Virus record (IMG/VR): IMGVR_UViG_2718218453_000005
Origin: a virus
Lineage: Duplodnaviria > Heunggongvirae > Uroviricota > Caudoviricetes
DNA length: 48,452 bases
Direction: 5' to 3' (one strand)
Shown here: positions 4,398 to 7,300 of the stretch, in pieces
Position numbering within the stretch: position 1 is the stretch's first letter
Layout: each line of letters starts with the position of its first letter
The notes under the pieces: model-generated
What the model was told of the DNA's origin: nothing
Seen by the model: the letters and a program-made list of their open reading frames with translations, nothing else
The model's database searches: none
Made by a program: the position numbers and the translations under genes

Positions 4398-7300
4398 TCA
4401 GCTGATACTGATACCTGCTGTGGATTTTTTCATCACCACAACCAGCAGATCGCTGATACTGGTTGTTGGTGTCCAGTTATTCGCTCCTGATGAAGATACG
4501 GTGAATGTCAGTGTCAGCGTCCCCTGTCCGGCAGGCATATCTATAACGGAGGAAAATACGCCCTGAGCATCCGTCGTGGACTGATTAAAAATCTCCTGAC
4601 CATTGCGGGTCACTCTTAACCGGCAGGTTGAATACCAGTATGACTGTTGGTTATTACTGTTGAAATTCTCATGCTTACCACCGCGGAATAACACTGGCGG
4701 TATCATGACCTGCCGGTCAAATTTCTGATCATCACTGATTCTTACCGTGATGGTGCCACTGGCATAACTGTTCGTGCGGGGGAAAGACTTGCTGACCGTT
4801 TTGACAATATCGCCTTCAATCTGATTGGCTGACAGTTTCCCCTTAATCTGACAGTTCTCATTAATCGTGACATTGTTGAGCGTCCCTGAATTTGCATTCA
4901 CATTACCGCTGATATCCGCATTTTTAGCGGTCAGCTTTCCGTCTGGTGTCAGGGAAAATGCCGGCGGATTTCCACCGCTGGTAATGGTGGGAGCCGTCAG
5001 GCGTTTGAGGAACACGTCATTCATGAATATCTGGTTGCCCTGCGCCACAAACATCGGCGTTTCATTCCCGTTTGCCGGGTCAATAAACGCGATACGGTTA
5101 GCGGCAACCAGAAACTGGCTCAGCTTGCCTTCCTCCGTGTCCTCCATGCTGAGGCCAATACCCGCGACATAATGTTTGCCGTCTTTGGTCTGCTCAATTT
5201 TGACGCCCCACATGGCATTCCACTTATCGTTAGCATCCTTCCACTCTTTCGAAAACTGCTCCAGTTTGCTGGCGTTATCCTCCGTCAGGTCGACTTTTTC
5301 CAGCAGCTCTTTACCAAGATGGGATTCGGTTATCTTGCCTTTGAAAAAATCCAGGTAACCTTCCGCATCATCGCTCGCCCGACCGACGGCCTCCACGAAT
5401 GCCGATTTGCCAACGGTGTTCACACTGCGAACGTAAAAATAATAATCATAGCCCGGCCTGATATTGATACTGGCGGCTATCCAGTACAGCGCCGTGCCAA
5501 GATAGCGCGCTGTGGTTTCAACCTGCTTGATACCAGCAATCCGTTTTTCCGAAAACCAGAACTCAAACTGTACCGTCGGGTCATAAACGGTAAGATGCGG
5601 CGTGGCGGTTATCTGAAAATAGCCCGGCGTCAGCTCAATCCGCGACGGCGCTGCCGGGGCGGCAATCCGGAACGATACCGACGCCGGATCGCCCTGCTGT
5701 CCCCACGCATTTACCGCCCGGACTGTCAGCGTGTACCGCCCCAGCGCCAGTTGCGTGAAGCGGTATGTGGTTTCCGTCGTCCGGGCCGTGCTGACCAGCC
5801 GCTCACTGCCGTCGTCCGCTGTTACGGTCAGACGGAGCAGGAAGCTCACACCCTTCACCACCTTCGGTGTGTCCCATCGCGCCAGCACCTGATATTCCCC
5901 GCTGTCTGCAGTGACTTCGGCAGTCAGGTGCTGCACCGCTGGCGGCGTGACACCGTTCACCGTGCCACTCTGTTCGCCGTCAAAGTGCGCCCCGTTATCC
6001 ACGATGGCTTCTTTTTCCGGTACATGCTGCACGGCGGTGATGGCATACGTGCCGTCGTCGTTCTCACGGATACTCACGCAGCGGAACAGGCGCTGGCGCA
6101 GCGTCGGCAGCTTCAGCCCCCATACGCTGTATCCGGCAACGCCGTCAGGAACACGGCTCACTTTTACCTTCACGCCGTCGGTGACGGACTGGACCTCCAC
6201 GCTGACCGGATTGCCACTTCCGTCAACCAGGCTTATCAGCGTGGTACCGGAGGATGGCAGCGTGATTTCACGGTCGAGCGTCAGCGTCCGTGTCTGGCTG
6301 TTTACCGCCAGCACGCGCCCGCCGATGCTGATACCGGCATAGTCATCATCGCAGATTTCAATGACATCGCCCGGTACATGGCGAAGCCCTTCGGCACCCA
6401 CGCTGAAGTCCACGGTCTGCGTTTCCAGCAGTTCTGTTTTAATCAGCCACAGCCCGGCGCGGTGTGCCTGCCCCCGGCTGGTACAGCCAAAGGCATCCAT
6501 CTTCGTGACGTTACGACCGTAACGGGCAATGGCCTGCGTGTCCTCCACAAGCTCTGTTGCCGTCTCCCAGCCGTTGTCCGGGTCAATCCAGTTCACCTCA
6601 ACGGCATTATGGCGGTCCTTCAGGGCGCTGAAGCTGTAGCGGAACGGCGCGCCATCATCCGGCATCACCACATTACTGCGGTTATAGGTCCACACCTTAT
6701 CCGACGGTCGGTCCTGCACGAACGTCAGCGTCTGCCCGTTCCATACCGGCATACAGCGCATCGCCGAGCAGAAATCACTGAGCACATCCCACGCCTTTCG
6801 CTGTGTGGTCAGGTACGCATTACAGGCGATGCGCGGCTCCGTGCCGCCAAAACCGTCCGGCACCGACTGGTCGCAACACTGGCCGATGACATACAGCGCC
6901 CATTTATCCACATCTGCCGCACCAAGACGTTTACCCATGCCGTAGCGCGGGTGGGTCAGCATATCCCACAGACACCAGGCCATGTTGTTGCTGTATGCTG
7001 GCTTAAACGTTCCGTCCCAGATACCGCTGTATTGCCGCGTCTGCGGGTTATAGTTCGACGGCACCTGCAGAATACGCCCGCGAAGATGATAATTACGGCT
7101 CACCTGCTGGCTGCCGAACTGCTCCGAATCCACCTGTACGCCGACCAGTGCCGTGTTCGGGTAGCACTGTTTCACATCGATGATTTCGGTGTATGACGAC
7201 CAGAGCGTTTTGTTCTGCAGCTGGTCTGTGGTGCTGTCCGGCGTCATCCTGCGCATCCGGATGTTGAACGGGCGCGGCGGCAGATTATCCACCACTACCG

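Follow-up and report, generated by a model that had tools for sequence, protein, structure and literature searches.

The 3' end of the tail tip gene J in the prophage described here is very probably a horizontally exchanged receptor-binding module, which belongs to the Ig-like fold family of phage lambda, carries the A8 allele and targets OmpC rather than LamB. The window, i.e. the whole analyzed stretch of 48,452 nucleotides (IMG/VR record IMGVR_UViG_2718218453_000005), contains an intact J gene that follows lambda J over 964 codons and then departs from it abruptly. The features of the region are listed in Table 1.

Table 1. Location of J, its parts and the neighboring tail genes in the window
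Feature	Position	Strand	Evidence
Side tail fiber (stf), 1092 aa	395..3673	-	Pfam phage_tail_N, Peptidase_S74
Terminator-like hairpin 3' of lom	3684..3705	-	Consensus scan
lom, Ail/Lom outer-membrane beta-barrel, 199 aa	3732..4331	-	Pfam Ail_Lom, 405 bits
Terminator-like hairpin and T-run just 3' of the J stop codon	4361..4380	-	Consensus scan
J, tip attachment protein / central tail fiber, 1132 aa, intact	4398..7796	-	ORF list, PGAP, Pfam
Receptor-binding module of J, probably exchanged, A8/OmpC type (aa 965-1132 and stop codon)	4398..4904	-	Identity to A8
C-terminal Ig-like receptor-binding domain proper, aa 1008-1132	4401..4775	-	Pfam PF12421 Ig_GpJ_C
J body, aa 1-964 (hub domains, FNIII domains, helical shaft, central straight fiber), lambda-like	4905..7796	-	Nucleotide and amino acid identity
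Upstream tail tip genes in lambda order (I, K, L, M, tape measure)	7857..13413	-	PGAP of near-identical record

Comparison of J with lambda J

J of the window and lambda J (NC_001416, 15505-18903) are of equal length, with an ORF of 3399 nt, and share 89% amino acid identity over 1132 aa (BLASTP). The first 2892 nt contain no indels and 124 mismatches (95.7% nt and 97.1% aa identity); 113 codons differ, 85 of them by synonymous and 28 by non-synonymous changes. In the last 507 nt, in contrast, the nt identity is 53%, with three indels, and the encoded residues 965-1132 are 47-49% identical to those of lambda (Fisher exact test for body versus tail at the DNA level, p ~1e-130). Residues 901-964, which end in a 16-residue stretch, are exactly those of lambda, and the first divergence is seen at residue 965 (BLASTP). 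Counted in steps of 50 nt, the identity falls from 45-49 of 50 positions to 38 of 50 at window 4896-4847 and to 17-31 of 50 beyond, which places a sharp boundary at about window 4896-4904. The preliminary description of this DNA had J tracking lambda J up to that 16-residue stretch, which the identity over residues 1-964 bears out. It had also let a divergent end of about 150 residues begin at 4870; the divergence and the sharp break are real, but the divergent part comprises 168 residues and its edge lies slightly upstream of that position.

The domains FNIII-A_GpJ, Phage-tail_3, Ig_J, Ig_J_second, Phage_Tail_Tip and Ig_GpJ_C were identified in J with Pfam, all well over their cut-offs. PF12421 (Tip attachment protein J, C-terminal receptor binding domain) covers residues 1008-1132 with 124.2 bits against a cut-off of 26.2, and the divergent end had thus been assigned correctly as the receptor-binding domain (RBD). 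In its domain set, its homology to lambda J and its place in the gene order H-M-L-K-I-J-lom-stf, the gene agrees in every test with a lambda-type tip attachment protein J, and PGAP names it 'gpJ: phage attachment tail tip protein J' in the near-identical record NZ_CM169494.1. Length, domain architecture, gene order and the fold family of the RBD are likewise shared with the lambda J structures PDB 8IYK, 8XCJ and 8XCK; the differences from lambda are found in the RBD, in the receptor (LamB for lambda, OmpC predicted here) and in the adjacent Lom.

The G+C content of J is 0.598 at nt 1-2200, 0.51 at nt 2201-2892 and 0.465 in the tail; the drop to 0.51 is present in both the window phage and lambda. 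The tail is more AT-rich than the lambda tail (0.544), as had been noted before, yet its value only equals the average of the whole window, and the GC-rich outlier is the J body. No RNA genes were found in or near the J-tip region with Rfam and tRNA scans. Two antisense ORFs on the plus strand (4294-4566 and 4867-5172) are unsupported and were taken as chance ORFs within a coding gene.

Residues 902-933 (window 4998-5093) are identical to lambda J, F924 included. This residue has been reported as the trigger of the Gifsy-1 abortive-infection nuclease HepS (PMC13043305), from which sensing of the window phage by HepS would be predicted.

The abrupt break, the proportion of differing bases (about 47% in the tail, 4% in the body) and the presence of the same allele on unrelated backbones argue for an origin of the module by recombination and not by point-mutational drift. 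The A8-type allele occurs with 97-100% aa identity to the window RBD in otherwise different phages, i.e. many Stx1a and Stx2a phages, 2H10, PhiR29_2 and YYZ-2008. The module probably entered by recombination between conserved flanks, with a 19-residue stretch of J as the upstream one and, as the downstream one, lom or the ...KK.TAGISIS end of J. The competing view, that the tip diverged in place by fast point mutation under host-range selection and without exchange of a module, is highly improbable. It would account for the graded identities of the other alleles to the window RBD, which are 83% in phage 21, 78% in BP-4795, 64% in the Stx2a_JNE110649 type (the best fit to the chimera 1A2, see below), about 50% in mEp460 and 434, and 47% in lambda, and host-range selection is known to act on J tips (PMC11101478), for example when lambda acquires OmpF use in the laboratory. 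Such drift would have to produce a break within ~50 nt, to lower the DNA identity to 53% right beside 95.7%, to include part of lom, where the lambda-divergent block continues, and to yield an identical allele on unrelated phage backbones.

Among distinct RBD alleles, those of phage 21 and BP-4795 come closest; they equal the window RBD in length and in the last 20 residues and differ at ~30-37 positions, many of them in four short stretches of the alignment. In 434 and mEp460 the J body is lambda-like and the whole protein is 90% identical to J of the window, but the RBD is another allele, 49-52% identical and 5 aa longer. J of HK97, phi80 and N15 has a homologous N-terminal hub (33-35% identity over ~720-890 aa). 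An alignment to the C-termini of these three phages had been proposed; no similarity to the window RBD was detectable there (E > 0.5), and the domains are not alignable.

Receptor assignment through the A8 tip

A search of the PDB sequences with the last 170 residues of J retrieved chain 9wca_J, 'A8 gpJ 713', with 169 of 170 residues identical (E = 1e-107). The only difference is residue 965, at the junction; residues 966-1132 are the same. The RBD structures of lambda J (8xcj, 8iyk) matched with E = 2e-39 (phmmer, PDB sequences). A further search with K-12 OmpC led to PDB 9wcb, which holds the same A8 gpJ sequence, here as the construct A8 gpJ(713-1132), together with three chains of 'Outer membrane porin C'. 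Both molecules share one entry, from which we infer that 9WCB is a true gpJ-OmpC complex. A paper describing 9WCA/9WCB was not found in the literature search, in which 'gpJ713' retrieved only the 2024 lambda-LamB paper; the term is the name used by Ge and Wang for a lambda J construct beginning at residue 713 (PMC11101478).

A8 is a lambda gpJ to which the C-terminus of a natural gpJ variant was fused so as to redirect it from LamB to OmpC (Brödel et al., Nature 2024, PMC11338833). It was screened on a lamB deletion recipient (PMC11338833), and delivery was reported into strains without lamB and ompC that carried ompC on a plasmid (PMC11338833 and preprint). OmpC of both MG1655 and EDL933 is recognized by A8, while a second chimera, 1A2, recognizes OmpC of EDL933 only (Brödel et al. 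2024, PMC11338833 and preprint). Of 23 OmpC variants, 21 were served by A8, 1A2 or both (PMC11338833). The published DNA of GpJ A8 aligned to the 3' end of window J with 95% identity, a value read from noisy, machine-read supplement text in which most gaps look like dropped letters. Translated comparisons of A8 and 1A2 were broken by frameshifts from the machine-reading, and the alignment was therefore made at the DNA level. The 1A2 DNA, equally noisy, aligned over the first ~200 nt only, with 73% identity. Like A8, 1A2 is a natural OmpC-directed C-terminus on lambda J (Brödel et al. 2024), but it is another allele, tentatively the Stx2a_JNE110649 type, to which its noisy DNA fits best.

By the matches to 9wca_J and to the A8 DNA, the window RBD is a member of the A8-type allele. 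It does not group with the LamB-directed allele of lambda, since the alignment gave none of the lambda-like C-terminus that would have spoken for LamB (47-49% aa, 53% nt, three indels), nor with the FhuA-directed J of the phi80/N15 type with cor, given the RBD comparison (E > 0.5) and the presence of lom, not cor, after J. The tip is identical to A8, and A8 is reported to be OmpC-directed; the receptor of the window prophage is therefore predicted to be OmpC. A receptor other than LamB had been suspected in the preliminary description, and it can now be given a name. It is extremely improbable that the domain still uses LamB, alone or along with OmpC, and that the divergence is neutral for receptor choice. 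A shared fold family (PF12421; the match to 8xcj) and the beta-strand core motifs kept across alleles are compatible with LamB use, yet A8, with the same residues 966-1132, came from a screen on a lamB deletion and was assayed without lamB and with ompC supplied in trans, and the RBD has only 47% identity to that of lambda with indels in three places.

What is known of the receptor was obtained with a chimera, built on a lambda chassis whose side fiber was engineered. In A8 the fusion point lies between residues 965 and 972, at the place of the natural mosaic boundary in the window, and the lambda J body of A8 corresponds to a body that is 97% lambda-like, with the 28 substitutions relative to lambda as the difference. 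A8 is engineered, on an Ur-lambda chassis with replaced side fibers, whereas in the window the domain belongs to a natural Rac-type prophage that has a Lom of its own and a side fiber of the S74 type. Because the body is 97% lambda and the tip identical to A8, native J would be practically the same molecule as the engineered chimera, and we infer that it behaves like A8. For the window prophage itself and for natural phages with A8-type alleles (2H10, PhiR phages, Stx1a phages, mEp460), the literature search found no receptor experiments. A large receptor-screen preprint covers GpJ of the Drexlerviridae type, and the A8-type allele is outside its range. Phage 434 is cited in PMC11101478 as the classical OmpC-using lambdoid phage. 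As 434 has a different RBD, OmpC use is common to at least two distinct RBD alleles, the A8 type and that of 434.

In the lambda-LamB relay, the RBD loops dock on the receptor, the base of the RBD spreads, the straight fiber twists, the shaft flips and the tube opens (PMC11101478). By analogy, the bottom loops of the three RBDs of the J trimer at the tail tip would dock on the extracellular face of the OmpC trimer. The bottom of the RBDs would then spread and the central straight fiber twist, after which the helical shaft and the FNIII strings would flip and the tail tube open for DNA ejection. The same relay would thus operate after docking of native J on OmpC. OmpC clashes with the open-state RBD of lambda itself (Ge and Wang, PMC11101478), so the details of docking must differ here from the LamB case. 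The side tail fiber probably gives the first, reversible contact with a different surface structure.

Prophage context and the lom region

The window differs by 2 nt from positions 2581743-2630194 of E. coli EC07 (NZ_CM169494.1), a human gut isolate from Spain. It represents a full-length Rac-type lambdoid prophage with intR, xisR, recE, recT, kilR, sieB, trkG, ydaY and ralR, and the set of head, tail and lysis genes is apparently complete according to the annotation of the near-identical record. The Rac prophage of K-12 is defective, unlike the apparently complete prophage of the window. If J were a relic of a defective prophage that no longer serves in adsorption, only its ancestry would matter; this is unlikely, although the Rac family is best known from its defective K-12 copy and three pseudogenes are annotated in the window (a tfa fragment, ynaK and one frameshifted ORF). 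J has kept an intact, full-length ORF, the genes for head, tail, lysis, replication and integration are annotated as a complete set, and the RBD DNA is 100% identical in many genomes, which suggests recent spread or purifying selection.

[quoted passage not shown] Downstream of stf, at 213-346, a frameshifted fragment of a tail fiber assembly gene was found. A group of genes for a YobI family P-loop NTPase (1210 aa; 33696-37328), a hok/sok toxin-antitoxin locus (32923-33216, with Rfam sok at 33046-33216) and a TehB family protein (32499-32840) sits between the replication genes and the late-gene region, and may be a cargo or defense islet. The RalR toxin gene and the RalA antitoxin sRNA (RF02694, 225 bits) at 46525-46896 adjoin recT, as in Rac.

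Between J and stf, a rho-independent terminator is annotated in mEp460 at the place equivalent to the hairpin behind J. The lambda-divergent block passes the J stop codon and includes a 66-nt spacer and most of lom, to window ~3830-3836; similarity to lambda DNA returns near 3836, in the 3'-terminal part of lom and at the beginning of stf. In phage 21, unlike in the window, lom is absent between J and stf, and in phi80 and N15 extra genes and cor are found downstream of J where the window has lom. Lom of the window is 45-48% identical to lambda Lom and 96-97% identical to Lom of 434, mEp460 and BP-4795, so that the same Lom is found with RBD alleles that are only 50-78% identical. A general rule by which the J RBD and lom are co-inherited as one cassette was rejected on account of these combinations of a near-identical Lom with different RBDs. 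As phages with different J tips share this Lom, the RBD appears to be exchanged independently of lom, with lambda as the apparent outlier for both. The lambda-type RBD was always found in the databases in lambda's own lineage and always with the lambda lom, which counts as one independent observation. The reported OmpC user 434 has almost the same Lom as the window, in contrast to the LamB user lambda. That Lom type is tied functionally to receptor class, e.g. by modulating OmpC exposure or superinfection in lysogens, or in a milder form that lambda-like E. coli prophages in nature use OmpC and not LamB by default, is a very doubtful proposition.

Allele frequencies and their meaning

Frequencies were determined in 5,426 complete E. 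coli genomes and in a phage collection of 50,697 records. The RBD allele of the window was matched in 2,588 of the genomes; 1,020 records were matched at >=99% and 485 at 95-99%, i.e. ~1,505 at >=95% nt identity. The lambda RBD allele was matched in 98 of the 5,426 genomes, all at >=99% (megablast), and five lambda-allele carriers appeared among the matches listed, all of them laboratory strains and three of them DE3 lysogens. The lambda J tip was found in 22 of the 50,697 phage records, all of them from lambda or phages closely related to it, and all copies of the lambda J tip plus lom are 99-100% identical. Being both rare and nearly invariant, the lambda tip and lom copies point to a single lineage.

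MW057783.1 and OM475427.1 are among the phage matches to the lambda tip. The J tip and lom of the record 'Campylobacter phage CJLB-4' match those of lambda with 100% identity, and the record looks like a lambda contaminant or a mislabeled entry. Phage D2 matches the lambda J-tip query over the first 202 nt only, which suggests a recombination point inside the RBD.

The case of the J tip is already known, since gene annotation, domain characterization and a deposited structure all exist and the allele is very common. The earlier observation of a divergent tip is correct but ordinary, and the receptor question, which it treated as open, is already answered in the literature and in the PDB. As a discovery the finding has little weight, with the domain, the receptor and a structure containing the receptor public and the annotation pipelines already calling gpJ. 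Its use is in annotation, where OmpC can be predicted as the receptor from sequence alone for the prophage of the window and for the numerous E. coli prophages and Stx phages with this allele. It also marks the textbook lambda as atypical: the LamB-type tip is present in ~2% of the complete E. coli genomes, versus roughly a quarter for the A8/OmpC-type tip at >=95% identity.
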